From contig NZ_CP084222.1 in NCBI RefSeq assembly GCF_020268605.1, positions 2,464,856-2,504,855 of the forward strand: 40,000 nucleotides of DNA, read 5' to 3'. Position 1 is the first letter of the stretch; each line of letters begins with the position of its first letter. Both the position numbers and the translations under genes were made by a program. This DNA is from Arsenophonus apicola. Lineage in GTDB: Bacteria > Pseudomonadota > Gammaproteobacteria > Enterobacterales > Enterobacteriaceae. The notes under the pieces are model-generated. The model saw nothing but the letters and a program-made list of their open reading frames with translations. It was not told the origin of the DNA and searched no databases. Below are positions 4,472-38,743 of this stretch, piece by piece.

Positions 4472-4505
4472 TATTCTTCCTTTTATTAGGTAAAAGCATT
4501 TCATG

Positions 4506-4533
4506 AGTATAGTGTGAATTAATCTTTGTTCAA
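4506..4533 (-). promoter_or_regulatory. Candidate sigma70 promoter for the Ail/Lom-like moron
   Basis: On the minus strand: TTGAAC (4533..4528), a 16-nt spacer, then TATACT (4511..4506), about 35 nt upstream of the ATG at 4471. Confidence 0.35.
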
Positions 4534-4536
4534 ATT

Positions 4537-5118
4537 TCACCTATACACAAAAGCGGGCGCATCTTTCTTACTGCCCCAGTAAATCGCTCGCTCAGCCATT
4601 TGCGCCACATACCGGAAAATCCGGTCATCACTTTTCCGTTTGCGCCATGACTCATCCGTAAATCTGTCCGGCAATCCCATGGACCAGCGCTCAAAGCGAT
4701 TCGATACCGTCACCGCCACCGCATTCTCTTCACCGGTTGTTACCCCAATCGTTGAGATTTGCCCTGCAAATATCACCTCGGCAATTTCGGGCTTCCCTTC
4801 CTGGTTGATAGCAACCAGCATTAACCGTACATTCCGGCCTCGACTGCGCTCATTCATCACATCACCAATCAGCAGAGAGTCAAATCCTGACAATGACAAG
4901 ATAAGTTGCTGTGGGCTGGTATTGTTCTGTTCCTTAACCTGTTCCACTTTACCAAATTGACCCACGCCTTGATAAAGCTCACCTGCAATAACCAAATCTC
5001 CCACACCGGTATGCGCGCGCGTCACGCCAGATTTTAAATCCAAACGGGCGGCGATAACAAGCTCATCGCTCTCATTTATCGCTTTTACCATTTTATTTGA
5101 AAAAGGATGATAGAACAT
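4537..5118 (-). CDS. Tail tip / baseplate-hub-like minor tail protein
   Basis: 193 aa, second gene after the tape measure, with overlapping start and stop codons on both sides. Assigned by position. Confidence 0.5.
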   Translation of the reverse strand: MFYHPFSNKMVKAINESDELVIAARLDLKSGVTRAHTGVGDLVIAGELYQGVGQFGKVEQVKEQNNTSPQQLILSLSGFDSLLIGDVMNERSRGRNVRLMLVAINQEGKPEIAEVIFAGQISTIGVTTGEENAVAVTVSNRFERWSMGLPDRFTDESWRKRKSDDRIFRYVAQMAERAIYWGSKKDAPAFVYR

Positions 5119-5714
5119 TAATAAAGGGCCTCCTCAAACGCCAAGGTGACAGTCGAAAATACACCAGGACGATACTGAAAATTCCCCTGGTCATTGGTTG
5201 TTAGCTTAAAAATCCCAAACGGGGAGCGGGTTTCTATTTTATCATTTATTTTAGGCGCGTATCGCAACATCGGTGAAATCGGTATGGCAGCATGACCATT
5301 AACATCACTTGTCACATTATCTGTCACCATTTTTAATTCATTGTTAATCGTCAGATAATCGCCTTTTCGCATCACAATTGAACTGACCTCCCAATCCTTG
5401 GTTTGCAGTATTCTACCTGTTTGATTCGCAACGCTCACTGCCGGCTTGCCCCTGCCCGTTAAACCTTTTCGTATCCAGTTGTAAATTTTTATTCGTCCGC
5501 TTTCGCCGTCAAGTTCAGCAGCCAATGCTTCAAGTTCACGCGAATGAGTCTCAGTCAGGTTATTAAAAGTTAAGCTACACCGCCAACGGCTTCCAGGGAA
5601 ACGCACTGTCTGTACACTTCCGGTAAACGTTGAGGTAAACGTTTTACTGTTACTCACTAGTTGCCAGTTCATAGTCGAAGGGACGATATTTTCCGGCCAT
5701 TCCTTTACCGCCAT
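5118..5714 (-). CDS. Distal tail protein (Dit-like) by position
   Basis: 198 aa, immediately downstream of the tape measure gene with a 1-nt intergenic gap. Confidence 0.5.
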   Translation of the reverse strand: MAVKEWPENIVPSTMNWQLVSNSKTFTSTFTGSVQTVRFPGSRWRCSLTFNNLTETHSRELEALAAELDGESGRIKIYNWIRKGLTGRGKPAVSVANQTGRILQTKDWEVSSIVMRKGDYLTINNELKMVTDNVTSDVNGHAAIPISPMLRYAPKINDKIETRSPFGIFKLTTNDQGNFQYRPGVFSTVTLAFEEALY

Positions 5715-5715
5715 C

Positions 5716-8613
5716 TTAACCTCCTAATAATCTTCTTGTTCGACCATTCGTGGCAAAATCCCGCTGAATGCGTGCAATGGCATCATCTGCACCTTTTTGT
5801 GCCCCCGCGTAGGTTGCCTGTTTCATCGCCTCAGTAAGTGCTTTATCGCCATTACCGGTCACATTGATAACCTGATGAATATGGATAGTGCTTACACCTT
5901 GGGTCTCTGATGAGCCACCGACGGCCCTGACACCCAGCGACCCATCACGACCACGGGTCAATGGCATAATGGCTTCAGGCCCCGCTTCACCCATTAACCC
6001 TATTCCTTTGGCAAATGGGAATAACGTCGGCGAATCCACAACGGTATTACTATAGGCACTTAAACCAGACGAACGATAAACACCGCCAAGTGCATTCGCT
6101 TTTATGCCAAGGAAATTACCCAACCCCGTTCCGCCTAAACTGGATTCCAGGGCTTTAAATATCATCATTTTAACAATCATGCGGGTAATATCATTAACGA
6201 CAGACTGAGCAAAATCAGAAAAGTTAAATTTACCCGTCGTCACAAAGTCAGCCAGCGTATTTGACATGCCATCGAAAGCGTTTTTAGTAATGTTTCGCAT
6301 ATTATCAAACACGTTTTCTGTTTCCGCACCAAAATCCTGCCAACCTTTGGCGACACCTTGGCTACCATCTTGCGCAACCTTCGCCTTACTTAATGCCGCA
6401 ACTCTCACTATCTCAATCTGTTTTTGTTCTTCTTGCGCTAAAAACTGCGTCTGTTCTGCATAAAGTTGTGAGGTCTTATCTGAAACTTCCTTATCAAGCT
6501 GATATCGCCGATTGCGAAAGTCATCCATGATGCGTTGTTCTTCAAGCATCAAATCATAATCCACTTTGGGCATAGTCATTTGCAGAATTTGATTCTGCGC
6601 TTCCTGCTGCATTTGAGCCGTACGTTTTGTGATTTCAAAATCCTGATCTGCAAATCGTTGCTTTAATGCTTTTAACTGTAATTCACGCTCTAGTCCGGTA
6701 TTGATTTGCAACTGCGTACGAATTTCATCCGCATGAACTAACACGCTCTTCTGCGAGGCATTCAGCGTTTGCCCTTTTAATCGATTGATTTCTTGCTCAA
6801 AGACTGCCAATTTCCGTTCTGAATCAAGGAGCTTTTCATTTTCCATTAACTGCGCTTGTAAAGTCGCCGTTTGTTGTTGCAGTTGCTCAATTCGCTGACG
6901 TCCGGTATCCAGGGTTACCTCTAAACTTTTTTGTGGGGAGGCGTACAGTTTATCGAGTCCTTTCAGCGCTTGGGTGTACTCATTTAATGTTAAACTGCCC
7001 TCTTTATAGCGTTGATTAATTTCCTGCTGAATTCTGGTTCTTTCTTTCAGCGGATCTTTACCCGCATTAATGGCCGCGTTAATTTGTGCAGCGGTTTCGA
7101 TGGTATGAATGGCGAGCTGCCTTTCCGTTTTTGTTTCTGCTTCACGCTCTTCGCGTTGTTTGGCGTAAATCGCTTCCTGCTTGTCCTTTTCTTTTTGCAA
7201 TACCTGATTATACAGTGTCAGACTTTGTGTTGATGCCGCCATCAACACCTTAAAACTGCCGGTTAGACTATCGAGTGATTTTTTATGCGCCTGGGTTAAA
7301 CGATCACTCTCTTTAATATTCTCCTGATACTGTTTTTCATAGGCGGTTCTTGCAAGCTCCTTCGCCTCTTCGGTTTGCCCGCGTCTTTCCAAGGCAGCAA
7401 TTTGCTCGTAAATCGATTGCGTTAATACCACCCCTTCTGCCGCGCAATTTCGCAAGGCTTTTAACGGTTGGTCACCGATTGCCGATAGCTTGCTGACCAA
7501 CATATCGACGCTACCGCCAGACTCCTCAAGTTGAGCGCCAAACTCCGCCACCTCTTCCAGTAGCTTGCCAGTAAACCCTGCACTGGCGGCAGAAGTCACC
7601 GCTTTATAGGCTTCGGCTGTCCCGCCTAGACGGTCGGCTAACAGACTCAACTCAACCGTTGTTGTCGATAAAAATAAACCGCCTTTTTGAAGGGCTGCAT
7701 AGAAAGACTTCTGCCTTTCTTCGGCTTCCTTAAACTGCGAATACAAATAAAACACTGTCCCTGCCGTTGCCATCAAGCCGACATTGACAGGGCCACCCAT
7801 AAGGGTAATCAGATTGCTGAAGCCACTTGCCACCCTACCCGTTATGCGCTGCAGAGCGGACAACTCCGTATTTGCAACGGCAAGTTGCTGCTTGGCTAAA
7901 GCTAATTGTCGCGTGCCCGCGGTTTCCGCTGCTTGCGCTGTCGTTAATTGCGCAGAAGCGGTGGCGGCTTTTTGACTTGCGCTGATTTCAGCCAGATTCG
8001 CTTCCGCTATTACTCTGGCATTAGTGGCATTTTGCGCCGCATATGCCTTTTCGATTTCAGCCGTATTCAGTCCATTTTGGGCGTTGGCCTCGCGCATCTT
8101 TTCAAGATATTCATCCGAAGCAAACGCCTGTTCACGTTGCGCGATAGCCTGTACTTTCATGGCTTGCGCGGTTTTTAATCCCTGCTGTGCTCTTCTGGCC
8201 TCTGCCTTCGCCACATCAATAGTAGACTGAGCATACTCTACCGCACTTTGTGCGGCTTCTTTCGCCATTTGCCGTTGAGTATCAAAAGGGGTGCCATGCG
8301 TAGCGCCAAACAATCTTTCAAAAGCCGGCACCAACGCATTTGAAATCGTACTGGCGGCAACATTGCTGCCAGAAACCAGCTCCGTTAACACATGGTGAAG
8401 TTGTCCAAAACCTTGTGCGGCTTGACCACTAGAACGCTTAGCTTGGGTCGCCATTTGGTTAATGGCGCGTGCGCTTGCATTGGAGCCAGTTTCAACCTGA
8501 CGGGTGAATTTGCGTGATTCATTCGCGGCGGTACTGTACGCATCCGTTAGCTGCGCTTTAAAGCTGGCGGCATTTAAATGCAATGCTACAGCCAGACTGG
8601 CGACATCAGCCAT
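5716..8613 (-). CDS. Tail tape measure protein
   Basis: 965 aa with a long Ala/Gln/Glu-rich coiled-coil. A hydrophobic Gly-rich segment (GGPVNVGLMATAGTVFYLY) is present. The gene follows the chaperone pair. Confidence 0.9.
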   Translation of the reverse strand: MADVASLAVALHLNAASFKAQLTDAYSTAANESRKFTRQVETGSNASARAINQMATQAKRSSGQAAQGFGQLHHVLTELVSGSNVAASTISNALVPAFERLFGATHGTPFDTQRQMAKEAAQSAVEYAQSTIDVAKAEARRAQQGLKTAQAMKVQAIAQREQAFASDEYLEKMREANAQNGLNTAEIEKAYAAQNATNARVIAEANLAEISASQKAATASAQLTTAQAAETAGTRQLALAKQQLAVANTELSALQRITGRVASGFSNLITLMGGPVNVGLMATAGTVFYLYSQFKEAEERQKSFYAALQKGGLFLSTTTVELSLLADRLGGTAEAYKAVTSAASAGFTGKLLEEVAEFGAQLEESGGSVDMLVSKLSAIGDQPLKALRNCAAEGVVLTQSIYEQIAALERRGQTEEAKELARTAYEKQYQENIKESDRLTQAHKKSLDSLTGSFKVLMAASTQSLTLYNQVLQKEKDKQEAIYAKQREEREAETKTERQLAIHTIETAAQINAAINAGKDPLKERTRIQQEINQRYKEGSLTLNEYTQALKGLDKLYASPQKSLEVTLDTGRQRIEQLQQQTATLQAQLMENEKLLDSERKLAVFEQEINRLKGQTLNASQKSVLVHADEIRTQLQINTGLERELQLKALKQRFADQDFEITKRTAQMQQEAQNQILQMTMPKVDYDLMLEEQRIMDDFRNRRYQLDKEVSDKTSQLYAEQTQFLAQEEQKQIEIVRVAALSKAKVAQDGSQGVAKGWQDFGAETENVFDNMRNITKNAFDGMSNTLADFVTTGKFNFSDFAQSVVNDITRMIVKMMIFKALESSLGGTGLGNFLGIKANALGGVYRSSGLSAYSNTVVDSPTLFPFAKGIGLMGEAGPEAIMPLTRGRDGSLGVRAVGGSSETQGVSTIHIHQVINVTGNGDKALTEAMKQATYAGAQKGADDAIARIQRDFATNGRTRRLLGG

Positions 8614-19043: not shown

Positions 19044-19247
19044 TTAATGTTTATGTTTAGCTGCACTCTTCGCCCATCGTTTAGCCTGATTGAGACAATC
19101 TTCTAGCATCTTGCCTCGTCTGCTTGCTGGCTGTTTGCGGTAGTACCGGATAGCTTCATTTGTTGCTGTTGCTGCTATCGATGAAGAAAAGCCGAGCTTC
19201 ATTAACTCGGCCTTGACATTGATTTCGATGAATTGTTCGGGGGTCAT
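19044..19247 (-). CDS. Hypothetical small basic protein
   Basis: 67-aa ORF. Its start overlaps the stop of the upstream Rha-like gene. Confidence 0.45.
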   Translation of the reverse strand: MTPEQFIEINVKAELMKLGFSSSIAATATNEAIRYYRKQPASRRGKMLEDCLNQAKRWAKSAAKHKH

Positions 19248-19807
19248 CCTTCTATCCTCCTGCTACCCCCACCAATTAAATCAAGGGGTATTTGAGATAA
19301 CTCCATTACTGTTTTTTCAGCTTTTTTAAGAATGGGTAAATCATCTTGACGCTTGCGTAATCTTCTCCCTGCATCAGACGAATCTTCATCAGACGCTTTT
19401 CGGGCGGTAGCCACAATGTTTTGTAATTGTTCAATAGTAAAAGCTAATCCTTTATTTTCTTCTAAATCGGTCATGTAGTCATAGACTTTGGCTTGTAACT
19501 CATAGCTATAGCTCATTGCCATCAGACAGGCTTCACGCTTAGGGAAGTGATAACAAGGAAGGTCACGACCCGTGCTGTCTTTGTACTGAGCAAAAAATTT
19601 TGCTGAGTACTCACCTAACACTTTCGGTACTTTTGTAAGAAAGCTTCGATGTTGTAATTGTCTGTATTTCTCACACGGAAAAGCCAAACCTTGACTTTTT
19701 GCTTTTGATTCACGTTCAGCATTAATGTAATCCACCATTTCCAGACTGGTCATTGTTGGCATTTCTGTTACTAAAAAATTGTCATTTTTAGTTGTTACTG
19801 CTTTCAT
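19244..19807 (-). CDS. Rha-family phage regulatory protein
   Basis: Start taken at MKAVTTKNDNFLVTEMPTMTSLEMVDYIN (ATG 19807, RBS AAGGAAAAG) rather than the 242-aa track ORF. The N-terminal region resembles Rha/pRha domain proteins. Confidence 0.6.
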   Translation of the reverse strand: MKAVTTKNDNFLVTEMPTMTSLEMVDYINAERESKAKSQGLAFPCEKYRQLQHRSFLTKVPKVLGEYSAKFFAQYKDSTGRDLPCYHFPKREACLMAMSYSYELQAKVYDYMTDLEENKGLAFTIEQLQNIVATARKASDEDSSDAGRRLRKRQDDLPILKKAEKTVMELSQIPLDLIGGGSRRIEG

Positions 19808-19945
19808 CGTACTTTTCCTTATAGAAAATCGAACCTGCTCACACAGAAAAGCCGCCCACAGAAAAAGCACCATTTTTAAACGGCAATTCTCAGGCTCGAC
19901 TTTCTGTAAGGTTCTGTGTTTGATTAATGCGCGGTGAGGGCGCGT

Positions 19946-19979
19946 TGAAATAAGAGGACTCCTTAGCGCCAAGGAGTCC
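19946..19979 (-). terminator. Candidate intrinsic terminator after the lysis cassette
   Basis: Minus strand: GGACTCCTT-GGCGCT-AAGGAGTCC (9-bp stem) followed by TCTTATTTCA. Confidence 0.45.
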
Positions 19980-26484: not shown

Positions 26485-27231
26485 TTAGAAAAATACCAAG
26501 CCGTTTTTAGCGATGGTCATTGTTGATTGATTGGGTATAGGTTGTCTTTGCTGCTTGCGTTTGCGTGCCGTCTCGTTTTGATAATTCAATTTTGCACTCA
26601 GTGCTGAAAACCAGTTTTTAGGTTTTTCTTTGCTGAATTCAACATCGAACCGTTTCAATTCCTGCAATAAATCAATATCTGAAAATATCGACGCCCATTG
26701 TTCAAAATCTTTTTGGTTGAGTCGAATCACTTCACCTTCAAACGCATAACGAGATATTTTTTCAATCGATTTTTTTTGAACAGTTTTTTGGGTGTTAAGA
26801 TCTTTAGATTCTATGTTAGGTTCTACTGATAGATTCTGAGTACCGTTTTTGGGATCCTTCAAAGTACCGTTTTTGGTACTGTTCAAAGTACCGTTTTTGG
26901 GATCGTTACCAATTTCGGTACTGTTCCCATTTTGGTACTGTTTATCATCCCGTTTTTGGTACTCTTCTTCGGTTATATTTAACCGTAAAACTTTAACTTG
27001 TTTTGTTGCTCCTTTTCTCTCTCCAGTATCGATTATTAACCCTTCAGCTATCATTTGGTTAATTTGTCGGCAAATAGTTTTTCTATCTAACCCAGTATCA
27101 TTTGATAGCCTCTGAATACTGGGATAGCAACAATGATGTTCATCAGCTCTGTCAGCTAGAGCTAGTAATAACAACTTCTGAGAAGCTTTTAAATTAATTT
27201 TCCATACCCAATTTGTTGCTATTCTACTCAT
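26485..27231 (-). CDS. Replication initiator (lambda O-like role) with an N-terminal winged-helix/HTH
   Basis: 248 aa. N-terminus is WKINLKASQKLLLLALADRADEHHCCYPSIQRLSNDTGLDRKTICRQINQM. Contains internal DNA iterons. Lies between the cII-like gene and the primase-helicase. Confidence 0.7.
   Translation of the reverse strand: MSRIATNWVWKINLKASQKLLLLALADRADEHHCCYPSIQRLSNDTGLDRKTICRQINQMIAEGLIIDTGERKGATKQVKVLRLNITEEEYQKRDDKQYQNGNSTEIGNDPKNGTLNSTKNGTLKDPKNGTQNLSVEPNIESKDLNTQKTVQKKSIEKISRYAFEGEVIRLNQKDFEQWASIFSDIDLLQELKRFDVEFSKEKPKNWFSALSAKLNYQNETARKRKQQRQPIPNQSTMTIAKNGLVFF
26840..26964. repeat. Iteron array (candidate origin of replication) inside the initiator gene
   Basis: GTACCGTTTTTGG occurs at 26840, 26864 and 26888, an exact 24-bp phasing. 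Degenerate copies (TTTTGGTACT) lie at 26930 and 26955. An AT-rich tract follows at about 26750..26800. Confidence 0.65.
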
Positions 27232-27397
27232 ACTGATTACCTCTAATGGATTCTTCGCGATGTTTAAGCCTTAAATTTGCATTTTCTAATGCGGCTTTTA
27301 GCTTCTTGGCGGCTAACTCTGTGAAAGAGCGATTGACTCTCTCTCTAATAATGTTTTTATGAATATTTGACTGGTAAAATCGGCGTTTATTTGCCAT
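27224..27397 (-). CDS. Possible 57-aa basic protein between the cII-like gene and the initiator
   Basis: MANKRRFYQSNIHKNIIRERVNRSFTELAAKKLKAALENANLRLKHREESIRGNQYE*. GAGG lies 7 nt upstream. The stop overlaps the initiator start by 8 nt. Preferred over the track ORF 27313..27501. Confidence 0.35.
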   Translation of the reverse strand: MANKRRFYQSNIHKNIIRERVNRSFTELAAKKLKAALENANLRLKHREESIRGNQYE

Positions 27398-27469
27398 AAT
27401 GACCTCGCTGAAATTGAAAGAAAAAAGGGAAAACTGGCGTTTCCCTTCTCCTTGAAAGGTAACCCAAAC

Positions 27470-27826
27470 TTAAAGTTGGATATGATGTTTGCAGGCTCCA
27501 TTGTTTTTTAACTCTGGAGCTTCTTTTTTTGGCAATCTCAAATGTTCCAGCATATCTATCAGCTTGCGTATCTCTTCACCTGAGATATTTGTTATGACTA
27601 AATCCTGCTTCGGTGAATCGTACCCTATGCAATCAAGCAGTCTTGCCATCTTAGGAATTATTCCATCCTCTGACTGCCATCTCGTGATTTGAGAAGGATT
27701 TATGCCAATAGCGTGAGCAATTCTTATTGCTGAATGTGCCTGAATGCCATTGCGTATTTTGGCTTCAATATTTTTTGCATTTGATTTGCGTGTAATTGTG
27801 GTTTCCATGTCTATAATTAATTCCAT
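27470..27826 (-). CDS. cII: CII-like transcriptional activator
   Basis: The HTH and following helix (AIGINPSQITRWQSEDGIIPKMARLLDCIG) parallel lambda CII (AVGVDKSQISRWKRDWIPKFSMLLAVLEWG, as I recall it). It is directly downstream of cro and nutR. Confidence 0.65.
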   Translation of the reverse strand: MELIIDMETTITRKSNAKNIEAKIRNGIQAHSAIRIAHAIGINPSQITRWQSEDGIIPKMARLLDCIGYDSPKQDLVITNISGEEIRKLIDMLEHLRLPKKEAPELKNNGACKHHIQL

Positions 27827-27926
27827 AAGTTTCAGATAATAGTATTCCCTCCCGATGGGCTGGGAATTTATAAATCTCCCAATTTCAGGGAGGCCAAGTT
27901 GTTAAAGAGCGGTGTAAATTAGTTCG
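27823..27926 (-). repeat. Copy 1 of a ~100-bp repeat spanning the cro 3' end, nutR and the cII start
   Basis: Near-identical to 31291..31393, with only a handful of substitutions. Confidence 0.8.
27876..27911 (-). promoter_or_regulatory. nutR-like site 1 (boxA CGCTCTTTAAC plus boxB hairpin CTCCC-TGAAATT-GGGAG)
   Basis: Minus strand, directly after the cro stop. boxA matches the consensus. The boxB stem-loop carries a GAAA-containing loop 8 nt downstream. A second hairpin lies at 27844..27867. Confidence 0.6.
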
Positions 27927-28119
27927 ATTTTTGCTTGTTACTATTTGATGGAAAAGGTTTTATTTCTATTGCCTCAATTCCATTCTTAGTGAAATTTAAA
28001 AAAATTTTCCGATGTTGCTTCAATGCTCTGCTAACGGCTCCTTGGGTAATACCAAGTTCCTTAGCAGTTGTTTCTTGTCCATGTCGGTTTACATAATCCT
28101 CAATAGTAATTTTGTTCAT
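27919..28119 (-). CDS. cro: Cro repressor, module 1
   Basis: 66 aa, MNKITIEDYVNRHGQETTAKELGITQGAVSRALKQHRKIFL...IKPFPSN. It is collinear with lambda Cro ([38 protein letters not shown]...VKPFPSN). Confidence 0.85.
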   Translation of the reverse strand: MNKITIEDYVNRHGQETTAKELGITQGAVSRALKQHRKIFLNFTKNGIEAIEIKPFPSNSNKQKSN

Positions 28120-28142
28120 CCGAATCTCCTTTTAGATATATT

Positions 28143-28205
28143 ATTACATTCGGTAATAACGCATGTCAATACCGAATGTATTTCTATAATATGATCAACG
28201 GTAAT
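28143..28205. promoter_or_regulatory. OR1: three operators of type ATTAC-N5-GTAAT with divergent pR1 / pRM1 promoters
   Basis: ATTACATTCGGTAAT lies at 28143..28157, AATACCGAATGTATT at 28168..28182 and the half-conserved ATGATCAACGGTAAT at 28191..28205. Centres are 25 and 23 bp apart. pR1 on the minus strand is TTGACA-17-TAATAA. A plus-strand TATAAT lies at 28185..28190. Confidence 0.6.
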
Positions 28206-28216
28206 AAAATAAGAGC

Positions 28217-28696
28217 ATGAATAAGAAAAAACCTTTGACAAAAGAACAGCTAGATGATGCAAAAAGATTGAAATCAATCTACATGCTAAAAAAAAATGAA
28301 CTTTGCATCACTCAAGAAGATATAGCAGATCAATTAGGTATTGGTCAGGCTGCGGTTAGTCATTATCTAAATGGTGTAAATCCTTTAAATGCAAAAACTG
28401 TAGCTCTATTTGCAAAACTATTAAAAGTAAAACCAAATGAGATCAGCCCATCGATAGCTTTAGAGTTAGAAGAAATAGCAAAATTAATGCTACCAACAGA
28501 TCATAGTTATATGATACCTGATAATTCATATACCAAATTAACAAAAACAGAAGAAAAGCTTTTAGATATGTTCAATGCATTAACAGAAGATGAACAAAGA
28601 AATTATCTAGAAGAAATTGCTGAGACTCGGGCTAATCTTGAACGAATCTATAAAGAAATGAAAGAAAAAGAGAAAAAATCCAAAAGAGCATCGTGA
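28217..28696 (+). CDS. cI: CI-like repressor, module 1: lambda-CI-type N-terminal HTH domain and a short helical C-terminus, with no S24 peptidase domain
   Basis: 159 aa. KKKPLTKEQLDDAKRLKSIYMLKKNELCITQEDIADQLGIGQAAVSHYLNGVNPLNAKTVALFAKLLKVKPNEISPSIA is collinear with lambda CI residues about 4-85. The protein ends after about 70 more residues. Confidence 0.8.
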   Translation: MNKKKPLTKEQLDDAKRLKSIYMLKKNELCITQEDIADQLGIGQAAVSHYLNGVNPLNAKTVALFAKLLKVKPNEISPSIALELEEIAKLMLPTDHSYMIPDNSYTKLTKTEEKLLDMFNALTEDEQRNYLEEIAETRANLERIYKEMKEKEKKSKRAS

Positions 28697-28774
28697 TGCA
28701 TTTTTTAGAAATACAACCATTAAACTTATCTAAACAGGCATGACTATTTAGATTTTTATACAAAAGGACACTCT

Positions 28775-29614
28775 ATGAAGGTTAGTTTTTGGGCTTATTA
28801 TGCAAAAAATGATATCACTGATATAACAAGTAGAATTAATTTAACTCAGGCGATCAATGACAAAATAATAAATAAAAATTCTCATTCGCTTGAGTCTGGT
28901 AGTGACTATATATACTTACATCCTATAAATGCACAAACCTTTTTGTTTACTAAAACAAATGATTCTGAGCTAATAAAAAAAATTAACCAAACAAATAATT
29001 CAATTAACGATATCCGCGAAAGTTTAGCTGATGATGAAATACTAGGGTTTTCTTCTTTTGTTTTTATTGAAAATAGCATTTTAGGTTTTGTATCGACAAA
29101 TTGGAGCCCTAGAACGCGAGAATTTTGTGATTTTATAAAAAGTAAAGAATTGCTACAGCCTAACGAAAGCCTAATAGTTGAGCCTTTAATGCAAGGGATT
29201 ACTAAAGTTGATGCATTAAATATGAATTTTATCGGCAGAACGACTTTGAGGATTGAATCAGAAAACTCATTAACTAACAACATCCTCAGAAGTATTGGAG
29301 CTAAAAATGTAAGTGATGTGCTATTGAATGAAATTGAAATAATCATCAAACCTAAATATCGTAAAAATATTCAAAAATTAACAAAAGAAATTCTAGCAGC
29401 TAGCTATGATAAAATTGATGACATAAAAATTAAAGGCAAAGAATCAGCAGCTGATAAACTCACAGAATATTACTTAGATGGTAAAGGTCACATTGGCGCT
29501 AAAATAATAAAGAAAAGTTCTAACGCTGACATTGCTGAAGAAATTTTAGCTACGTACATTAGACTTAAACCATCTATACTTGAGTCTTTTAGAAAGATAG
29601 AATGTGAATTATAG
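28775..29614 (+). CDS. rexA: RexA homologue (abortive-infection/exclusion)
   Basis: 279 aa, the same length as lambda RexA. It shares blocks I recall from lambda RexA (TFLFTKTND, SLADDE-LGF, EPLM-G-TK, FIGRTT, IKPK, NA-IAEE). It sits directly after cI. Confidence 0.7.
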   Translation: MKVSFWAYYAKNDITDITSRINLTQAINDKIINKNSHSLESGSDYIYLHPINAQTFLFTKTNDSELIKKINQTNNSINDIRESLADDEILGFSSFVFIENSILGFVSTNWSPRTREFCDFIKSKELLQPNESLIVEPLMQGITKVDALNMNFIGRTTLRIESENSLTNNILRSIGAKNVSDVLLNEIEIIIKPKYRKNIQKLTKEILAASYDKIDDIKIKGKESAADKLTEYYLDGKGHIGAKIIKKSSNADIAEEILATYIRLKPSILESFRKIECEL

Positions 29615-29647
29615 CCGTATAAATTATATCATAGTGGGAAATATTTA

Positions 29648-30088
29648 ATGAACAAGTTGATAAAAATAGCATCAGCTATAATTCTATTTTCAATCCCATA
29701 CTTAATTACATTCCCAATTTTTTGTTGGTTTAAATATTCATTAACACCAAATCTATCTTTCTCCCTACACAGGGATGTTCTTGGTGCCACAGTTAGTTCT
29801 TATTCAAGCGCTCTTATTGCGGTACTTATAGTTGGACTCACATTTCTATTAGGGATAAAAAATAATAACTTCATTAAATTGCAGCAATACGGATACATGT
29901 TACCAATAATAACACTCTATGCTCTTACCTTTGTAGAGTTGGGAATATTGTTTTTTGCGGGTATAATTCTAATATCGAATTTTAAAGAATTACCATTACC
30001 ATCAATGGCTGCAATCATGGTTGTAACCTCATTTATGCACTTATGTTTATTGATACTTCAGCTGTATAATTTATCAAATAGAAAATAA
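29648..30088 (+). CDS. rexB: RexB homologue (polytopic membrane protein)
   Basis: 146 aa with four hydrophobic segments. It shares recalled lambda RexB blocks (HRD-LGAT-SSY, LTFL-G, YGYM, YAL-FVELG-LFF, QLYNL). Confidence 0.7.
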   Translation: MNKLIKIASAIILFSIPYLITFPIFCWFKYSLTPNLSFSLHRDVLGATVSSYSSALIAVLIVGLTFLLGIKNNNFIKLQQYGYMLPIITLYALTFVELGILFFAGIILISNFKELPLPSMAAIMVVTSFMHLCLLILQLYNLSNRK

Positions 30089-30108
30089 CCCTCCGCCCGA
30101 GGGTTTTT
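30087..30108 (+). terminator. Rho-independent terminator of the cI-rexA-rexB operon
   Basis: AACCCTC-CGCCC-GAGGGTT followed by a T5 run immediately after the rexB stop. Confidence 0.7.
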
Positions 30109-30281
30109 ATCGCCCTCTCACCACCCTCTACCTCACATACACTCTAATATCAACATAACTAACCCATACCCTAATATTCTCCATAGCTTTACTCTTCTTA
30201 TTTGTTTTAACCATCTCTTTATATCGCTGACAAAAATAATCCTTTTAAAATCATTCAATAAAAATGAAATAATGAATTTAT

Positions 30282-30323
30282 AATATTTTCGGTATTGACT
30301 TTATTTATTACCGAATGTAATAT
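30282..30323 (+). promoter_or_regulatory. OL1/pL1: two module-1 operators overlapping the promoter TTGACT-17-TAATAT
   Basis: AATATTTTCGGTATT lies at 30282..30296 and a perfect ATTACCGAATGTAAT at 30307..30321. The -35 is at 30295..30300 and the -10 at 30318..30323. The operator family is the same as in OR1. Confidence 0.6.
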
Positions 30324-30461
30324 CACCCCATCAACTCACTGCAACAGGCAAACGCCAGACAATACCACGAGTTATCTGAAACTTTGCCAAACGTTGCTAA
30401 GTAGCCAGCCCGAGGCATATGAACATGAAGGCAAGTGTAGTTCATCAGTACCTAAGTCATT

Positions 30462-30500
30462 CGCTCTTTAACATATTGGAATCACCGCTCTGAATAAGCG
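30462..30500 (+). promoter_or_regulatory. nutL-like site 1 (boxA CGCTCTTTAACA plus candidate boxB CGCT-CTGAATA-AGCG)
   Basis: boxA lies at 30462..30473. The weak hairpin at 30486..30500 has a GAA-containing loop. The site is in the pL1 leader upstream of the N-like gene. Confidence 0.45.
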
Positions 30501-30648
30501 TTAGAGCAACCCCACCAAGTGAGTTTTGGGGTGTGTGAATATAACAGAACAGTCAAATCTCGTTTTTACATCAGGGAATAAACAGACTGTGAGTAAAAAC
30601 CGTAAGCATCCCGGCACACACCACTAAAACTTATTTAGGAGAAACAAA

Positions 30649-30963
30649 ATGGCAACCATTATCTTTAAACCTAAAAAAGACAATGCTAAATCCCGTCGCC
30701 TGGCAAAACAAATGGCATTCTGGGATAGAAAACGCGCTGAATACGAAGCGAAACCTAAGCCACGTTCTACAGAGCAAATCCTTGATTCCATATTCAACAA
30801 GCAGGATGACACCGTTAATACCATTGCATCACTCACTCTCAATCTAAAAGACAGAAAGCCTCAGCCTTCATTTGATAACTGTTGTTTACCGAATACTTAT
30901 CTTTATCATACAAATAAGGCATCAAAAAACTTATTGAAAATACTCGCCGCACGTGCAAAATGA
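30649..30963 (+). CDS. N: N-like antiterminator, module 1
   Basis: 104 aa and the first gene after pL1/nutL1. Has a basic N-terminal arginine-rich stretch (KSRRLAKQMAFWDRKRAEYEAK). The C-terminal motif FDNCCLP is shared with the second N-like protein. Confidence 0.55.
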   Translation: MATIIFKPKKDNAKSRRLAKQMAFWDRKRAEYEAKPKPRSTEQILDSIFNKQDDTVNTIASLTLNLKDRKPQPSFDNCCLPNTYLYHTNKASKNLLKILAARAK

Positions 30964-30997
30964 AATTTAAGTCATCGGAAAGCGGACGATAAAATCA

Positions 30998-31252
30998 ATG
31001 AATTACATTGTAAAGTGTCCAATATGTGGAAAAAAGTTCAATGTTAAAAATCCATCAAAACATATCAATGCTTATCACCCTGATGCATCTGAGCAAGATT
31101 TAATAGCAATTAGAGATGCTCGTAGAAGTTTGCTAGGAAAACCGATTAAAACTCATCATAAGACTAAACATTATCTTTTAAAAAACATCACAAAGCATGA
31201 TGGTAAAAAGCCTTTTAGTGGTGGACTTCCATCACTTGGAAAAAAAAGATGA
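30998..31252 (+). CDS. Hypothetical small zinc-finger-like basic protein
   Basis: 84 aa. CPICGKKF...HINAYH is a C2H2-like arrangement. Confidence 0.45.
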   Translation: MNYIVKCPICGKKFNVKNPSKHINAYHPDASEQDLIAIRDARRSLLGKPIKTHHKTKHYLLKNITKHDGKKPFSGGLPSLGKKR

Positions 31253-31290
31253 TTTGATAGTCTTTGCAGCAATCTTATCCTACACTTAAT

Positions 31291-31393
31291 CCATAAGTTT
31301 TAGATAATAATATTCCCTCCCGATGGGCTGGGAATGTAAAATCTCCCAATTTCAGGGAGGCCAGGTTGTTAAAGAGCGGTGTAAATTAGTTCG
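31291..31393 (-). repeat. Copy 2 of the cro-3'end/nutR/cII-start repeat; the cII remnant is reduced to ATG GAT TAA
   Basis: Aligns with 27823..27926. Contains boxA (31368..31378) and boxB (31343..31359). Similarity fades about 10 nt beyond the vestigial cII ATG at 31294. Confidence 0.8.
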
Positions 31394-31589
31394 TTTTTTG
31401 CTTGATATTGCTTGACGGAAAAGGTTTTACTTCCTCAGCTTCAATTTTCCCGTCATCATGGATAAGAACAGTAATTCTTCTTCTCATACGGAGCGCTTTA
31501 CTTATACCACTTTGGTATAAACCTAGCGCTTTAGCTGTTTTTCCTTGTCCATGCAGTTTTACATATTCAAGTAAAGATAATCGTTTCAT
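31386..31589 (-). CDS. cro: Cro repressor, module 2
   Basis: 67 aa, MKRLSLLEYVKLHGQGKTAKALGLYQSGISKALRMRRRITVL...EEVKPFPSS. Its recognition helix (YQSGISKAL) is closer to lambda Cro than that of module 1. Confidence 0.85.
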   Translation of the reverse strand: MKRLSLLEYVKLHGQGKTAKALGLYQSGISKALRMRRRITVLIHDDGKIEAEEVKPFPSSNIKQKTN

Positions 31590-31615
31590 TAAAATCTCCC
31601 TTGGCTTGCTTTTAT

Positions 31616-31679
31616 TATCACTTGAAGAGATTTTATTGTCAACACCGCTAAAGGTTTGAAGTTATTCCTCTAGGTGATA
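31616..31679. promoter_or_regulatory. OR2: three lambda-like 17-bp operators with divergent pR2 / pRM2
   Basis: TATCACTTGAAGAGATT lies at 31616..31632, TCAACACCGCTAAAGGT at 31639..31655 and TATTCCTCTAGGTGATA at 31663..31679. Centres are 23 and 24 bp apart. pR2 on the minus strand is TTGACA-17-GATAAT. A plus-strand TTTGAA-17-TAAAAT ends 7 nt before the cI2 ATG, so the mRNA may be leaderless. Confidence 0.65.
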
Positions 31680-31690
31680 AAATTATTTAC

Positions 31691-32149
31691 ATGAAAAAGA
31701 AACCATTAAATCAAGAACAGCTAGCTGACGCTAAGCGATTAAAAGCGCTATTTAATGCGAAAAAGAAGGAATTAGGTTTATCTCAGGCCGTAGTTGCTGA
31801 TCACCTTGGAATTGTACAAAGTGCAGTAAATTCTTTGCTAAATGGTGTTAATGCACTTAATGCACGCAACGCTGTTGCTCTTGCAAAATTATTAAGGGTG
31901 TCTGTAAATGACTTTAGTCCATCTATTGCAAAAGAAATAGCGATGATGTATCAAACTGTGGATGTAAATGATCCAAACATGAATTTAGTCCATGATTTAT
32001 CGCAACAAGAAAAAAATTTATTGCAAATGTTTAATGAGTTACCACAAAAAGAAAAAGATAAATTTATAAGTCAAATTAATTCGAGAAAAAACGAACTTGA
32101 TCAGCTTTATGAAGAAATGAAAGCCGTTAAAGAAAAGAAAGCTTGTTAA
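31691..32149 (+). CDS. cI: CI-like repressor, module 2: same truncated architecture, different recognition helix
   Basis: 152 aa. [82 protein letters not shown] is very close to the lambda CI N-terminal domain. The C-terminus is homologous to that of module 1 ([16 protein letters not shown]...LYEEMK). Confidence 0.8.
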
Positions 32150-32219
32150 TTTTTTATCCCTCCAATTTATATATTTTATTATCTTAAAATCAATAAATTA
32201 GGTTTCTTCTGCATAAATA

Positions 32220-32262
32220 AATCTCTTGCGGTGTTGACTTTTAAATCTTAAAAAGTGATACT
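32220..32262 (+). promoter_or_regulatory. OL2/pL2: two lambda-like operators and the promoter TTGACT-17-GATACT
   Basis: AATCTCTTGCGGTGTTG lies at 32220..32236 and AATCTTAAAAAGTGATA at 32244..32260. The layout mirrors lambda pL (TATCTCTGGCGGTGTTGACA...GGTGATACT, as I recall it). Confidence 0.65.
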
Positions 32263-32395
32263 TATCTCCATCAACTCACTGCAACAGGCAAAAGCCAGAC
32301 AATACTCCGAGTTATCTGAAACTTTGCCAGACGTTGCTAAGTAGCCAGCCTGAGGCGTACGAACATGAAGGCAAGTGACGACAGTTAAGCAATAC

Positions 32396-32428
32396 CGCTC
32401 TTTAACATCCTTTCGCTGAAAAAGCGAA
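32396..32428 (+). promoter_or_regulatory. nutL-like site 2 (boxA CGCTCTTTAACA plus boxB TCGCT-GAAAA-AGCGA)
   Basis: boxB is a 5-bp stem with a GAAAA pentaloop, the same loop as lambda nutR boxB (GCCCT-GAAAA-AGGGC). Confidence 0.65.
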
Positions 32429-32582
32429 CCACAAAACACCCAAACAGTCGGTTTTGGGGTGTGTGAAATAACCAAAATAAAGTCATTCTTCTAATGCCAA
32501 TACCAGGGTAATACCTGCATGATTGTAAATTTGACTGGTTAGCCCTATCACACACCACCAAAACTTATTGTCAGGAGGTAAT

Positions 32583-32924
32583 ATGTGTAACTTTCATGGT
32601 TATGATAATGCTCGTCGTCGTAGAAATGAGCGTAGAAGATCCAGGCAAGCAGCTTATGAATATAACAGAGCACTTAATATGGCACTGAAAGCAGCCTTAA
32701 ATCGAAGCAAGCCCTCTCAGCAACAAACACCAACAAATACTAAACGCCCTATCCTTTCACTAAAAAGAAAAGTGATTAATCGTGTAGAAAAAGCAATATC
32801 AATTCGTCCTACTAAAGTTTATGACGCATTTAATAACTGCTGTTTGCCTATAGCAGCTTTGTATACTTCTAGACGTTTTCACAGTAAACCTAAATCCAAC
32901 TTTGGAGTCACTGCTAACTGTTAA
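32583..32924 (+). CDS. N: N antiterminator, module 2 (lambda N-like)
   Basis: Start at ATG 32583 with AGGAGG 5 nt upstream; the track used an upstream TTG. The arginine-rich motif is NARRRRNERRRSRQAAYEY. The block KRPILSLKRKVINRVEKA parallels lambda N NRPILSLNRKPKSRVESA. Confidence 0.7.
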   Translation: MCNFHGYDNARRRRNERRRSRQAAYEYNRALNMALKAALNRSKPSQQQTPTNTKRPILSLKRKVINRVEKAISIRPTKVYDAFNNCCLPIAALYTSRRFHSKPKSNFGVTANC

Positions 32925-32934
32925 AGGTATAAAA

Positions 32935-33459
32935 ATGATTTTGACGGTCGATAAAAAAGCACTTCTCAGTGCAATGATTTTTCAGGCTAAATGTGATATC
33001 AGATATTATCTAAACGGCATTTGTTTTGCCCCTGAAAAAAAGCTGTATGCTGCTGACGGTTATCGAGTTTTTATTGGTGAGCATGAGACTGAATCGCTAC
33101 ATGAAAGCGTGATAATTTCAATTAAAGGCGCAAAATTTACTCGCTTTGACAAGGCACAGATTGATACCCAATATGGAATTGTGACCTATCTTGATAAAGA
33201 CGGGTTACGCGTTGGTGCAGCAATCTGTGAGGTTATTGAAGGGAAATATCCTGACATTAACAGAGTAATTCCTAAAGAAAGCAAGCCCGTTTCAGAGATT
33301 GGCTTCAATGCCAGCTATCTTGCGGATATCGAGAAAGTAGCAAAAATTTATAACCCGAAATATAAATCAATAAAAATTAAACCTAACGGTAATGACAGTG
33401 CCGCAATTGTCGAGTTAAACAAAAACACATCCGTAATCATCATGCCGATGAAGATCTAA
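32935..33459 (+). CDS. Small protein with DNA polymerase III beta-clamp-like motifs
   Basis: 174 aa from ATG 32935. KYPDINRVIP resembles the DnaN FPDYRRVLP motif and the flanking beta-rich sequence is similar in character. The assignment is tentative. Confidence 0.4.
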   Translation: MILTVDKKALLSAMIFQAKCDIRYYLNGICFAPEKKLYAADGYRVFIGEHETESLHESVIISIKGAKFTRFDKAQIDTQYGIVTYLDKDGLRVGAAICEVIEGKYPDINRVIPKESKPVSEIGFNASYLADIEKVAKIYNPKYKSIKIKPNGNDSAAIVELNKNTSVIIMPMKI

Positions 33460-33545
33460 TTACCGTTTGACATCTTCCTCGCCCTGGACGACAGGATTTT
33501 ACGGCATATATGATAAACCTGAATCACATTTTGGAGTCACCGCTA

Positions 33546-33797
33546 ATGGATGAAAACAAAAAAATAATACAAGTTCAAATTGTTGCTGATGTTAGCGCAA
33601 AATGTAACTATATCGTAGATATGACCGAAGAAGATTATAGAAAATTTGAAAAAATTATTGATTCACAAATGACATCCAGAGAGATGAATAATGCAATTCT
33701 TGATATAGCCTGCAAATATGGAATTTATGACAATATCGACTTCAACGAACCTGAGGACACTGAATTCCATCGGATTGGCGCATCAACAATCTATTAA
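33546..33797 (+). CDS. Hypothetical acidic protein
   Basis: Start placed at ATG 33546 behind the conserved TTTTGGAGTCACCGCTAATG linker. The track ORF starts 12 codons earlier, inside the linker repeat. Confidence 0.45.
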   Translation: MDENKKIIQVQIVADVSAKCNYIVDMTEEDYRKFEKIIDSQMTSREMNNAILDIACKYGIYDNIDFNEPEDTEFHRIGASTIY

Positions 33798-37129: not shown

Positions 37130-37287
37130 ATTGGTCATAACCTAGTCACATATCAATGGTGGCTCAGGTAGGGGAACCGTAAGGTTCGCCGGAGGTACAC
37201 CGGTATTTCGAACCCTGTCTGGGCTACCACCACGAGATTCGAAACTCCAGTGGTAGCATTTATCTAAATGTACCATTGGAGGTCAAT

Positions 37288-37821
37288 ATGACCACTCACT
37301 CATCCCTTGTTATTCCTAAAGTTAGTATTCACAAAGGTAAAGCGATTACCACCTCACAAGATGTAGCCGAATACTTCAACAAGCGCCATGACAACGTTCT
37401 ACGTGCTATCGGCAGTCTTGAGTGTTCATCTGAGTTTCGTCTCCTCAATTTTGAGGAGACGTTCTACATACGAGAAAATCCCAACGGTGGAGATGGGATC
37501 TCAACAAAGTGCTACGAAATGACTAAAGACGGCTTCGTATTCTTGGTGATGGGATTTACCGGAAAGAAAGCCGCTCAATTCAAGGAAGCCTACATTGCTG
37601 AATTTAATCGCATGGAAGCACAATTACACAATGCTGTTACCGTAACAGGTAATACAAACAAAATTCTTCTCACTTTACTTCCCAATGGCAAAGTAGATAG
37701 CGCAAGAGTAATTCATGATAATGAATATGTCGCTTCACTAGAGTCACTCTTCGAAATTGGTCGTCGTGCTGGTTACATGATCATTCACAAAGATGAATTA
37801 ATCAAAAAATTATCAGAATAG
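37288..37821 (+). CDS. Rha-family regulatory protein / putative antirepressor
   Basis: ATG 37288 follows GGAGG; the track used an upstream TTG. AITTSQDVAEYFNKRHDNVLRAI...YEMTKDGFVFLVMGFTGKKAAQFKEAYIAEFNRME is the Rha (pRha) domain pattern. Confidence 0.7.
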   Translation: MTTHSSLVIPKVSIHKGKAITTSQDVAEYFNKRHDNVLRAIGSLECSSEFRLLNFEETFYIRENPNGGDGISTKCYEMTKDGFVFLVMGFTGKKAAQFKEAYIAEFNRMEAQLHNAVTVTGNTNKILLTLLPNGKVDSARVIHDNEYVASLESLFEIGRRAGYMIIHKDELIKKLSE

Positions 37822-37918
37822 CTTACTTTTCCTTAGCACGTCTCCGTTTCAAACGGAAGCGTGCCGCAAATTAATAATACCAATATTCAATCATCAATTA
37901 ACTTTGAGGAATTTCTAT

Positions 37919-38743
37919 ATGCAAAATTTAATCAATATAGAAACAAAAAACATCAGTGGTGAATTAATCCAAACGGTTAATGCCCGTGATTTACATGCGT
38001 TTTTAGAAATTACTACGCGATTTAATGATTGGATAAATAGGCGTATAGCAGAATATAGTTTTGAAGAGAACATTGACTATATTATTGCTGAAAATTTGAG
38101 CTACTCAAATTTGAGTAGTGCAAAATCTCGCCAACGTATGATGAAAGACTACTATATCGCCATCGATATGGCGAAAGAGCTATCCATGGTTGAACGCAAT
38201 GAAAAAGGGAAACAGGCAAGGCAGTATTTTATTGAATGCGAAAGACGTGTTTTACAACCTCAACTTCACATTCAAACATTACTACCAACAAAAAAAGAAC
38301 TCGCTCTCATGGTTGTTCGTGCTGAAGAAGAGAAAGAACAGTTATTACTGGAAAATAAAAGTCTCTCAACCGAAAACGATTGTCTTAAAAATCTCTTTAA
38401 GGAAGGTATGACCCCTACCCAATTTAGCAAAATGCTTAATGGCGTAAACAGTCAGCAGATAAATCATTTTCTGGCAGAGAGGAAGTGGCTCTACAACGAA
38501 AGTAAATCCGGCATACGCTGGCGTGTTGCTTCTTATGCACGGGATAAATATTTAACCGAAAAACAAAGCGAAATAAGCCCACACGGTGCTGACAGATTCA
38601 TTAGTTATCAACCTGTATTACTCAAAAAAGGGGCGCGACGTCTCTATGATTTGTATCTGGATTACAAGCTGCCCATGAAACTGACGTGGAATGGTTCACA
38701 TACTCATGACAAGTCCATCCAGGGTATTCACCTGAAGCACTGA
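37919..38743 (+). CDS. AntA/KilAC-type antirepressor
   Basis: ATG 37919 follows GAGGA. The N-terminal AntA-like block is VNARDLHAFLEITTRFNDWINRRIAEYSFEENIDY. The C-terminal part is KilA-C/ANT-like. Confidence 0.7.
   Translation: MQNLINIETKNISGELIQTVNARDLHAFLEITTRFNDWINRRIAEYSFEENIDYIIAENLSYSNLSSAKSRQRMMKDYYIAIDMAKELSMVERNEKGKQARQYFIECERRVLQPQLHIQTLLPTKKELALMVVRAEEEKEQLLLENKSLSTENDCLKNLFKEGMTPTQFSKMLNGVNSQQINHFLAERKWLYNESKSGIRWRVASYARDKYLTEKQSEISPHGADRFISYQPVLLKKGARRLYDLYLDYKLPMKLTWNGSHTHDKSIQGIHLKH

Follow-up and report, generated by a model that had tools for sequence, protein, structure and literature searches.

The switch of phage lambda, the textbook decision circuit with one repressor, is among the closest described counterparts of the DNA considered here, a stretch at positions 30,282–31,679 of a 40,000-nucleotide window of the Arsenophonus apicola genome (G000:C1:2464856-2504855, contig NZ_CP084222.1; genome of 3.64 Mb, 37.6% G+C; all coordinates are window positions). 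The stretch is the inner boundary of two lambda-type immunity cassettes stacked in series in a lambdoid prophage. Each cassette contains cro, an operator/promoter region, cI, pL, nutL, and an N gene, and each alone is an ordinary lambda-type immunity region. From 27.4 kb rightwards, module 1 consists of cII, nutR1, cro1, OR1, cI1, rexA, rexB, a two-way terminator, OL1/pL1, a 110-nt leader, nutL1, and N1; an 84-amino acid zinc-finger gene is inserted before module 2, which consists of nutR2, cro2, OR2, cI2, OL2/pL2, a second copy of the leader, nutL2, and N2, followed by the remaining early-left genes.

Module 1 reproduces the lambda gene order exactly (cII-nutR-cro-OR-cI-rexA-rexB-OL/pL-nutL-N), with a lambda-family Cro, nut sites in which boxA precedes boxB, and a predicted pRE inside the start of cII, and N2 has the arginine-rich and RPILSLxRK motifs. 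In contrast to lambda, a second full cassette lies between N1 and the left arm, neither repressor carries an S24 domain, three classes of boxB are present with the nutL and nutR of one N unmatched, and the pL of one cassette faces the pR of the other. Salmonella phage P22 possesses two separately controlled immunity regions, immC and immI, both of which are needed for lysogeny. The term dual immunity has been used for this phage (PMC11016777). The presence of two separately controlled immunity regions in one phage is common to P22 and the Arsenophonus prophage. However, the region that P22 has in addition to immC lies far from it and encodes an antirepressor system (ant, mnt, arc), whereas both regions here are immC-type cI/cro/N cassettes, adjacent and in series. 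An immI-type region, that is, an antirepressor with its own repressors as the second region, is absent, and Ant-like genes lie elsewhere in the prophage. Coliphages 186 (pR/pL) and P2 (Pe/Pc) have face-to-face promoters with colliding transcripts, and transcriptional interference is expected. The early promoters are convergent here as well, but those of 186 and P2 belong to one switch and lie tens of bases apart, whereas here two switches with different repressors and N/nut systems are involved, at a distance of 1.28 kb. Gifsy-type prophages encode repressors without a cleavage domain and are induced by antirepressors (Lemire et al., 2011, PMC3121763). The short repressors with only a helix-turn-helix and the three Ant-like genes of the window prophage resemble this type, but a Gifsy phage has one switch, and no LexA box is located near the Ant-like genes here.

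Among individual relatives, Providencia phage PSTNGR2lys (MW145137) encodes an N that is 54% identical to N2 and has matched boxB elements at nutL and nutR, and this phage and Proteus phage Brookers, both isolated, carry one cassette each. The Photorhabdus cinerea prophage L057 has the order of module 1 (cro-cI-rexA-rexB-nutL-N1-like) in a single cassette, with a nutR hairpin unlike its nutL hairpin apart from a common run AAGUGU, and the N1-type prophages L059, L061, and L062 of Xenorhabdus and Providencia have matched boxB elements at both sites. A distant DNA search of 27400–33500 against isolated phages matched only a clamp-like gene, and no relevant description of tandem or double lambda-type immunity was found in the literature. 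What appears to be new is the stacking of known lambda-type cassettes, in which a pL faces the pR of a different switch, nutR and a pRE-like element are kept at a fixed joint, and the cassettes are interchangeable.

Anatomy and origin of the stack

Divergent cI and cro genes around operators that recur at pL are present in both cassettes, as judged from Pfam Cro and HTH_3 matches and from OR/OL inverted repeats. Both cro1 (27919–28119, minus strand; Pfam Cro PF09048, E 8e-19) and cro2 (31386–31589, minus strand; Pfam Cro, E 3e-24) belong to the lambda Cro family, and cI1 (28217–28696, plus strand; Pfam HTH_3 only) and cI2 (31691–32149, plus strand) encode repressors with Pfam helix-turn-helix matches only. 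The OR1 segment 28142–28182 and the OL1 segment 30282–30322 are complementary over 41 nt at 85%, the operator motif of OR1 being TATTAC-N5-GTAATA, and the OR2 segment 31616–31657 and the OL2 segment 32219–32260 over 42 nt at 76%.

A search of the genome revealed the same succession, namely a pL leader, N1 to 30906, 48 nt, a nutR block from 31246, a second leader, and N2, in three more of its prophages (C1:1.35 Mb, C1:1.81 Mb, and contig C4), and a variant at C1:1.13 Mb has a zinc-finger gene in the place of N1. Outside this genome, the succession was seen in at least 12 loci, distributed over A. nasoniae, Ca. A. triatominarum, Ca. Phlomobacter fragariae, A. nilaparvatae, and the endosymbionts of whitefly and tick hosts, some of the compared loci being from draft or metagenome assemblies. 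A search of 396 sampled genomes representing 177 other genera gave no copy of the block of Y-type nutR (nutR_Y) and junction. The earlier note on this DNA had explained the second module by a local duplication, which does not agree with an N1-to-nutR joint shared by other prophages of the genome and by at least 12 loci in at least five other Arsenophonus species. The arrangement is better read as an old fusion with one shared joint that was later diversified by cassette exchange. The stack is the usual layout of Arsenophonus lambdoid prophages. Since numerous prophages of the genus have this layout with this joint, the design is inherited and probably functional.

The placement of the left joint at the start of cII, with a relic ATG GAT TAA at 31294–31286, was borne out when 28 nutR_Y copies were aligned. 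Beyond ATGGA(A)TTAA there is no homology to the start of cII, and the break falls directly after ATGGAATTAA: true nutR-cII copies continue from ATGGAATTAA into TTATAGACATGG, and all 19 inner junctions from ATGGAATTAA into GTGTAGGATAAGATTGCTGCAAAGACTATCAAAT. Two features are found in the window only, a 1-nt deletion that turns ATGGAATTAA into ATGGATTAA and 339 nt (30907–31245) in place of the usual 48 nt, which encode a new N1 tail and the zinc-finger gene (30998–31252, plus strand; C2H2-type, phrog_20899), present at this place in this phage only. In 13 loci, the nutR boxB lies 90–95 nt from the N1 stop. A homologous zinc-finger gene directly follows the outer repressor, replacing pL-nutL-N1, in prophage A and in L025, L026, L028, and L039.

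The pRE of lambda has the motif TTGC-N6-TTGC around its -35 and a weak -10, lies inside the start of cII, and reads antisense through cro into cI. A comparable promoter, pRE1, is predicted in the first codons of the module 1 cII, directed towards cI1 (27786–27817, plus strand; TTGC-GTGTAA-TTGT, 12 nt, TATAAT). Its motif is identical in every Y-type cII (cII_Y) copy, and a pRE-like geometry (TTGA-TAGTAT-TTGA, 12 nt, TATAAT) also occurs at the X-type cII start of sister prophages. The junction linker (31254–31294, plus strand), the strand complementary to the relic at 31286–31294, contains a further candidate, pRE2, with TTGA-TAGTCT-TTGC (31254–31267), a 13-nt spacer, and TACACT (31281–31286). 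Across the 19 inner junctions, which represent nine distinct sequences, the repeat and the -10 are nearly invariant and the 13-nt spacer varies at several positions. Because of its motif geometry, its position, and its conservation at these junctions, the linker most likely represents a retained CII-dependent promoter for the inner repressor. The relic segment, regarded earlier as merely vestigial, thus resembles a pRE-type promoter whose motif has been kept.

Cassettes are found at different positions in different prophages. The cassette in the outer position of prophage C recurs as the inner one of L026 and as the only one of L031, and the inner position of prophage A is occupied by an S24-bearing cassette that L034 has in its outer position. 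Three cro/cI cassettes in series are present in L039 (Ca. Arsenophonus triatominarum NZ_LWMI01000011, G031:C11:125000-138000, ~2300–7000), separated by two copies of the junction plus nutR (3519 and 5123), with a zinc-finger gene preceding the first copy and the N1 variant N1' the second. Two loci have a single cassette: L030 (Ca. Phlomobacter fragariae) combines a cI2 with 93% and a cro2 with 82% identity, nutR_Y, cII_Y, and an N2-type N, and L029 combines a cII-nutR block, a cI1-like repressor, nutL2, and N2. The window contains direct repeats, with nutR copies 3.47 kb apart and leader copies 1.94 kb apart, and layouts like those of L030 and L029 are exactly the products expected from recombination between them. 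The leader copy at 30328–30437 (plus strand) is 94% identical to that at 32268–32377. This 110-nt leader begins at the predicted +1 of every pL, is 88–98% conserved across cassettes and species, has no Rfam match, and has at least the role of a linker for recombination. At least five related prophages of the genome have linkers in common, at 88–99% identity. The stack would have arisen once, by joining the end of an N1-type N gene of one phage (X) to the first cII bases of another (Y), and cassettes would later have moved between prophages and positions through recombination at the nutR block and the pL leader.

A sister prophage on the 52.5-kb contig C4 (L085, G000 contig C4:1500-12500) has an outer cassette 99.5% identical to module 1. 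Its cI1, rexA, rexB, inner repressor, and clamp-like gene are split by frameshifts, which may reflect homopolymer sequencing error or decay.

N proteins and boxB classes

The boxA sequence CGCTCTTTAAC occurs four times, at 27901–27911 (minus strand), 30462–30472 (plus), 31368–31378 (minus), and 32396–32406 (plus), and elsewhere mainly in seven rRNA leaders. Each of the four nut sites consists of this boxA and a hairpin 8–15 nt downstream. The nutR1 (27844–27911, minus strand) and nutR2 (31312–31378, minus strand) sites are both Y-type; their boxB elements at 27876–27892 and 31343–31359 are the identical CTCCCTGAAATTGGGAG (0 expected by chance), which agrees with the earlier description of CTCCC-TGAAATT-GGGAG in both copies. 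A further hairpin follows in each, at 27844–27867 (G+C-rich, a possible tR1) and at 31312–31335. The nutL1 site (30462–30507, plus strand) carries the N1-type boxB GCTCTGA-ATAAGCG-TTAGAGC at 30487–30507, and nutL2 (32396–32428, plus strand) the lambda-type TTCGCT-GAAAA-AGCGAA at 32412–32428. The two nutL elements differ, with the lambda-like one, a GAAAA pentaloop, in module 2, as had been noted before.

Folding of the nut RNAs gave the nutL2 hairpin as predicted (z -3.3), but a different one at nutL1. The string CGCT-CTGAATA-AGCG that the earlier note had taken for the nutL1 boxB is present; its register was rejected, since CGCT/AGCG is fully paired in five of 21 distinct sites, compared with 19 of 21 for the 7-bp alternative at 30487–30507. 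This N1-type hairpin, GCYCTGA-N7-TTAGRGC, shows two compensatory pair changes and one wobble change across genera, and a hairpin of 7 bp and 7 nt is also the ViennaRNA minimum-energy fold of nutL1.

N1 (30649–30963, plus strand) and N2 (32583–32924, plus strand; ATG at 32583 after AGGAGG) are each encoded directly after pL, leader, and nutL, and each has an N-terminal arginine-rich motif; their Pfam N_peptide matches are weak, below the curated cut-off (E 4e-4 and 9e-5, respectively). The motifs differ, as was stated earlier: KKDNAKSRRLAKQMAFWDRKR in N1 and DNARRRRNERRRSRQAAYEY in N2. The N1 motif is almost unchanged in prophages of Photorhabdus, Xenorhabdus, Providencia, and Morganella, and orthologues support the assignment of N1, although its homology to relatives ends at 30906, the last 18 codons (from 30907) being replaced. 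Comparison of N1 with solved structures gave nothing meaningful. N2 aligns to the arginine-rich motif of lambda N, and its RPILSLKRK is close to the NusA-binding motif RPILSLNRK of lambda N.

A nutL and a nutR of the same boxB class, matched to one N, are found in typical tandems and in outgroups and are absent from the window, where nutL1 alone carries the N1-type hairpin and nutL2 alone the GAAAA pentaloop, a third type being present at both nutR sites. Typical tandems (prophage C, L021–24, L032, L033, and L035) carry the N1-type hairpin at nutL1 and at the outer nutR, beside a variant boxA. The N1' variant of prophages B, L027, and L039 has a different arginine-rich motif, and in B and L027 nutL and the outer nutR that accompany it have matching tetraloop hairpins of 8 bp, unlike the N1-type; motif and both hairpins have changed together. 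These comparisons suggest that the outer unit is normally a self-consistent set of N, nutL, and nutR. For N2, relatives outside the genus (Providencia phage PSTNGR2lys) and locus L078 have matched lambda-like GAAAA pentaloop boxB elements at nutL and nutR, the class into which nutL2 also fits.

The Y-type nutR hairpin fits neither the N1-type nor the N2-type class. Its core CCCT-GAAAT-TGGG is two substitutions away from CCCT-GAAAA-AGGG, the nutR boxB of the N2-like prophage L078, and among 28 copies the hairpin is nearly invariant and the flanks are variable. In single-cassette L030 and L029, nutR_Y occurs with N2 as the sole N, and the mismatch between nutL2 and the Y-type nutR is already present there and hence did not arise through the tandem arrangement. 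The subtype represented by the window, to which prophage E, L034, L042, and L050 also belong, has a Y-type nutR-cII block in the outer position. The cII of this block in the window (27470–27826, minus strand; Pfam Phage_CII, E 3e-7), the first right-arm gene after nutR1, is 87–100% identical to cII in D-like relatives. An N1-type outer nutR thus appears to have been replaced, specifically in this subtype, by a Y-type nutR and cII block. The 3' ends of cro1 and cro2 are 88% identical in DNA (27872–27979 and 31339–31446), the proteins being only 46% identical overall, and this similarity traces the recombination by which the outer position acquired its Y-type nutR-cII block. The proposal that the nut sites are cross-wired between the modules therefore stands insofar as neither N finds a boxB that matches it both at its own nutL and at one of the nutR sites, and is refined in that the peculiarity lies in the Y-type outer nutR. 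Because the only constant partner of nutR_Y in relatives is N2, antitermination of the right arm probably depends on N2 and would be under the control of cI2.

Facing promoters and the proposed working of the stack

A promoter scan as a whole was not above chance (26 sites, compared with 25.1 expected from shuffled sequence), so the promoter calls were based on context, namely position, operator overlap, and the fixed distance between the -35 and the leader. The predicted pL1 (30295–30323, plus strand) consists of TTGACT (30295–30300), 17 nt, and TAATAT (30318–30323), within an OL1/pL1 region at 30282–30323. The predicted pR2 (31642–31614, minus strand) consists of TTGACA (31642–31637), 17 nt, and GATAAT (31619–31614), with 11 of 12 positions matched. 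The OR1 region (28137–28190) includes pR1 (28169–28140, minus strand, 11/12) and pRM1 (28163–28190, plus strand), and OR2 (31614–31683) includes, beside pR2, a predicted pRM2 (31656–31683, plus strand) that would yield a leaderless cI2 mRNA. OL2 and pL2 (TTGACT, 17 nt, GATACT) lie at 32219–32262 on the plus strand. In about 30 related loci, whatever the immunity type, the spacing between a -35 hexamer and the conserved pL leader is constant. The positions given earlier for pL1 and pR2 hold for these near-consensus sequences, which converge over about 1.28 kb. Each lies in operators that recur at the other end of its own cassette, from which it follows that pL1 and pR2 probably answer to different repressors. 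No strong intrinsic terminator is predicted between them, the only candidate being the G+C-rich hairpin at 31312–31335, which has no clear T tract. Likewise, no terminator is predicted between the cI2 stop and pL2 (32150–32233), compared with a strong hairpin after rexB in module 1, and pRM2 transcripts might for this reason continue into nutL2 and N2 unless stopped by Rho.

In the lysogen, cI1 would shut pR1 and pL1 and cI2 would shut pR2 and pL2, so that the facing promoters are silent. During lytic growth, the right arm would be transcribed from pR1 and the left arm from pL2, N1 would be expressed from pL1 and Cro2 from pR2, and polymerases from the two facing promoters would collide head-on between approximately 30330 and 31607; cro2 is promoter-proximal and would thus lose less to collision than N1. 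N1 would be matched to nutL1 only, and antitermination of cro1-cII-O-P-Q would most likely need N2. Since the Y-type nutR1 probably needs N2 and N2 is under cI2 control, full lytic expression would require both locks to be open. For establishment, pRE2 would read antisense through cro2 into cI2, and both repressors could be established from a single cII gene. The view that the two halves are in use is supported by the constraint on N1, the joint change of motif and hairpins in N1', and the outer pL position, which is kept across immunity types. The whole of this reading, comprising the stacked cassettes, a joint of single origin, an N2-dependent right arm, pRE2, and the requirement for both locks, is in our judgment probable, though well short of certain. 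The anatomy, the joint held in common, the movement of cassettes, the constraint on N1, and the boxB classes are established from the sequences; the activity of the promoters, the pairing of N2 with nutR, pRE2, and the need for both locks are inferred.

Several points weigh against it. Compared with the N2-type pentaloop, the nutR_Y boxB is altered in its closing pair and at position 5 of the loop, and lambda boxB genetics indicates that changes at these positions would weaken binding; N2 may act poorly at nutR_Y, or the site may depend on boxA, which is rRNA-like. In tandem phages, N1 is always accompanied by nutR_Y, which makes an action of N1 there possible as well. N1 is intact in most tandem loci and appears to be under purifying selection (median pairwise dN/dS 0.15, codons 1–86), but the 52 pairs compared are not mutually independent, and the N1 of the window is without its usual C-terminal 18 residues. 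The -10 of pRE2 (TACACT) is weak and its support comes from only nine distinct junction sequences. Finally, symbiont prophages are often decaying, and the near-identical copy on contig C4 has frameshifts.

The inward promoters, each with its own N, could alternatively read through the neighbouring cassette into the far arm, from pL1 with N1 to cI2, N2, and the left arm, and from pR2 with N2 to cro1, cII, O, and P. Either lock, once open, would then switch on both arms as in an OR gate, and read-through from pL1 would act on cI2 in the manner of pRE. The earlier note had gone further, holding that a pL1 transcript must take its path through the other module to reach the left arm and that a pR2 transcript would cross the other module likewise; the geometry stands, but the necessity does not, as pL2 and pR1 serve the left and right arms directly. 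Such a relay fits the geometry and also the lack of a predicted plus-strand intrinsic terminator between pL1 and N2, the location of nutL1 just after pL1 and of nutR2 just after cro2, and the conservation of N1 despite apparently little other role in this subtype. However, head-on collisions would limit read-through, the two-way terminator at 30087–30105 and repressor-bound operators lie in the paths, and the conserved pRE-like linker suggests that cI2 can be established independently of pL1. A version in which an SOS-cleavable inner repressor with S24 relays to an outer repressor with only a helix-turn-helix was rejected as a rule, as cassette types change positions, and is ruled out in this phage, where neither repressor has S24. 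We consider the relay unlikely as the working principle of the stack.

It is quite improbable that the stack is a tolerated by-product of recombination, regenerated through the linkers among co-resident prophages, with one half (pL1-N1 or pR2-cro2-nutR2) inert and a benefit limited to double superinfection immunity or lacking altogether. The five or more related prophages with their shared linkers, the direct repeats that flank module 1, the existence of both predicted deletion products (L030-like and L029-like), and the frameshifts of the contig C4 copy would fit this explanation, but N1 is intact across species under apparent purifying selection, arginine-rich motif and boxB have changed together in N1', outer pL promoters and linker motifs are conserved, and the stack has outlived speciation within the genus despite flanking repeats that would be expected to delete it. 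A one-off local duplication, or an assembly chimera of two prophages at shared repeats, is scarcely credible, for although linkers are repeated in the genome and homopolymer-type frame breaks occur elsewhere in the assembly, independent assemblies of at least six species contain this very joint, at several loci per genome, and the cassettes share only about 45% protein identity and hence are not recent duplicates.

A broader speculation can be tentatively offered, namely that Arsenophonus lambdoid phages may carry an expandable array of one to three CI/Cro/N switches on fixed linkers, in which each inner cassette would have its own nutR and CII-activated pRE, one CII would establish all repressors, lysis would need every lock open or N-dependent read-through would relay between locks, and immunity specificities would be gained, lost, and swapped by unequal crossing-over. 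Such an array would amount to a genetic switch of natural origin with several inputs and, at the same time, to a cassette system for immunity to superinfection. A lineage that runs two or three lambda-type switches in series, with facing early promoters, three N/boxB specificities, and one shared CII input, would show how such circuits are combined in nature. It would also provide ready-made orthogonal repressor-operator and N-boxB pairs for studies of transcriptional interference and antitermination specificity. The stack may further help to explain the coexistence of many closely related prophages in one symbiont genome, and even as a merely tolerated recombination product it would be a clear case of module shuffling driven by linkers.

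Induction and neighbouring features

Neither cI1 nor cI2 has a Pfam match to the S24 (LexA-like) self-cleavage domain, and the inner repressors of sister prophages A, B, and C carry Peptidase_S24. Three antirepressor-like genes of the PHROG Ant/Rha families are located at 19244–19972 (minus strand), 37276–37821 (plus strand), and 37904–38743 (plus strand), and no LexA box (CTGT-N8-ACAG) occurs anywhere in the window. Because of these three features, the lack of S24 in both repressors, the Ant-like genes, and the absence of a LexA box, the prophage is probably induced by antirepression.

Downstream of cI1, rexA (28775–29614, plus strand; Pfam RexA, E 2e-52) and rexB (29648–30088, plus strand; Pfam RexB, E 1e-34) are part of the lambda-like order of module 1. 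The two-way terminator hairpin 3' of rexB, which would lie in the path of read-through from pR2, is predicted on the minus strand, and TTTTTATC follows it on the plus strand. Rfam gave no match over 27000–33600. The left 23 kb of the window form the late region of the lambdoid prophage, with lysis genes, Q, and NinG. Within the O-like replication gene, four repeats spaced by 24 nt (GTACCGTTTTTGG...) are located at 26840–26967 and are probably the iterons of the origin.

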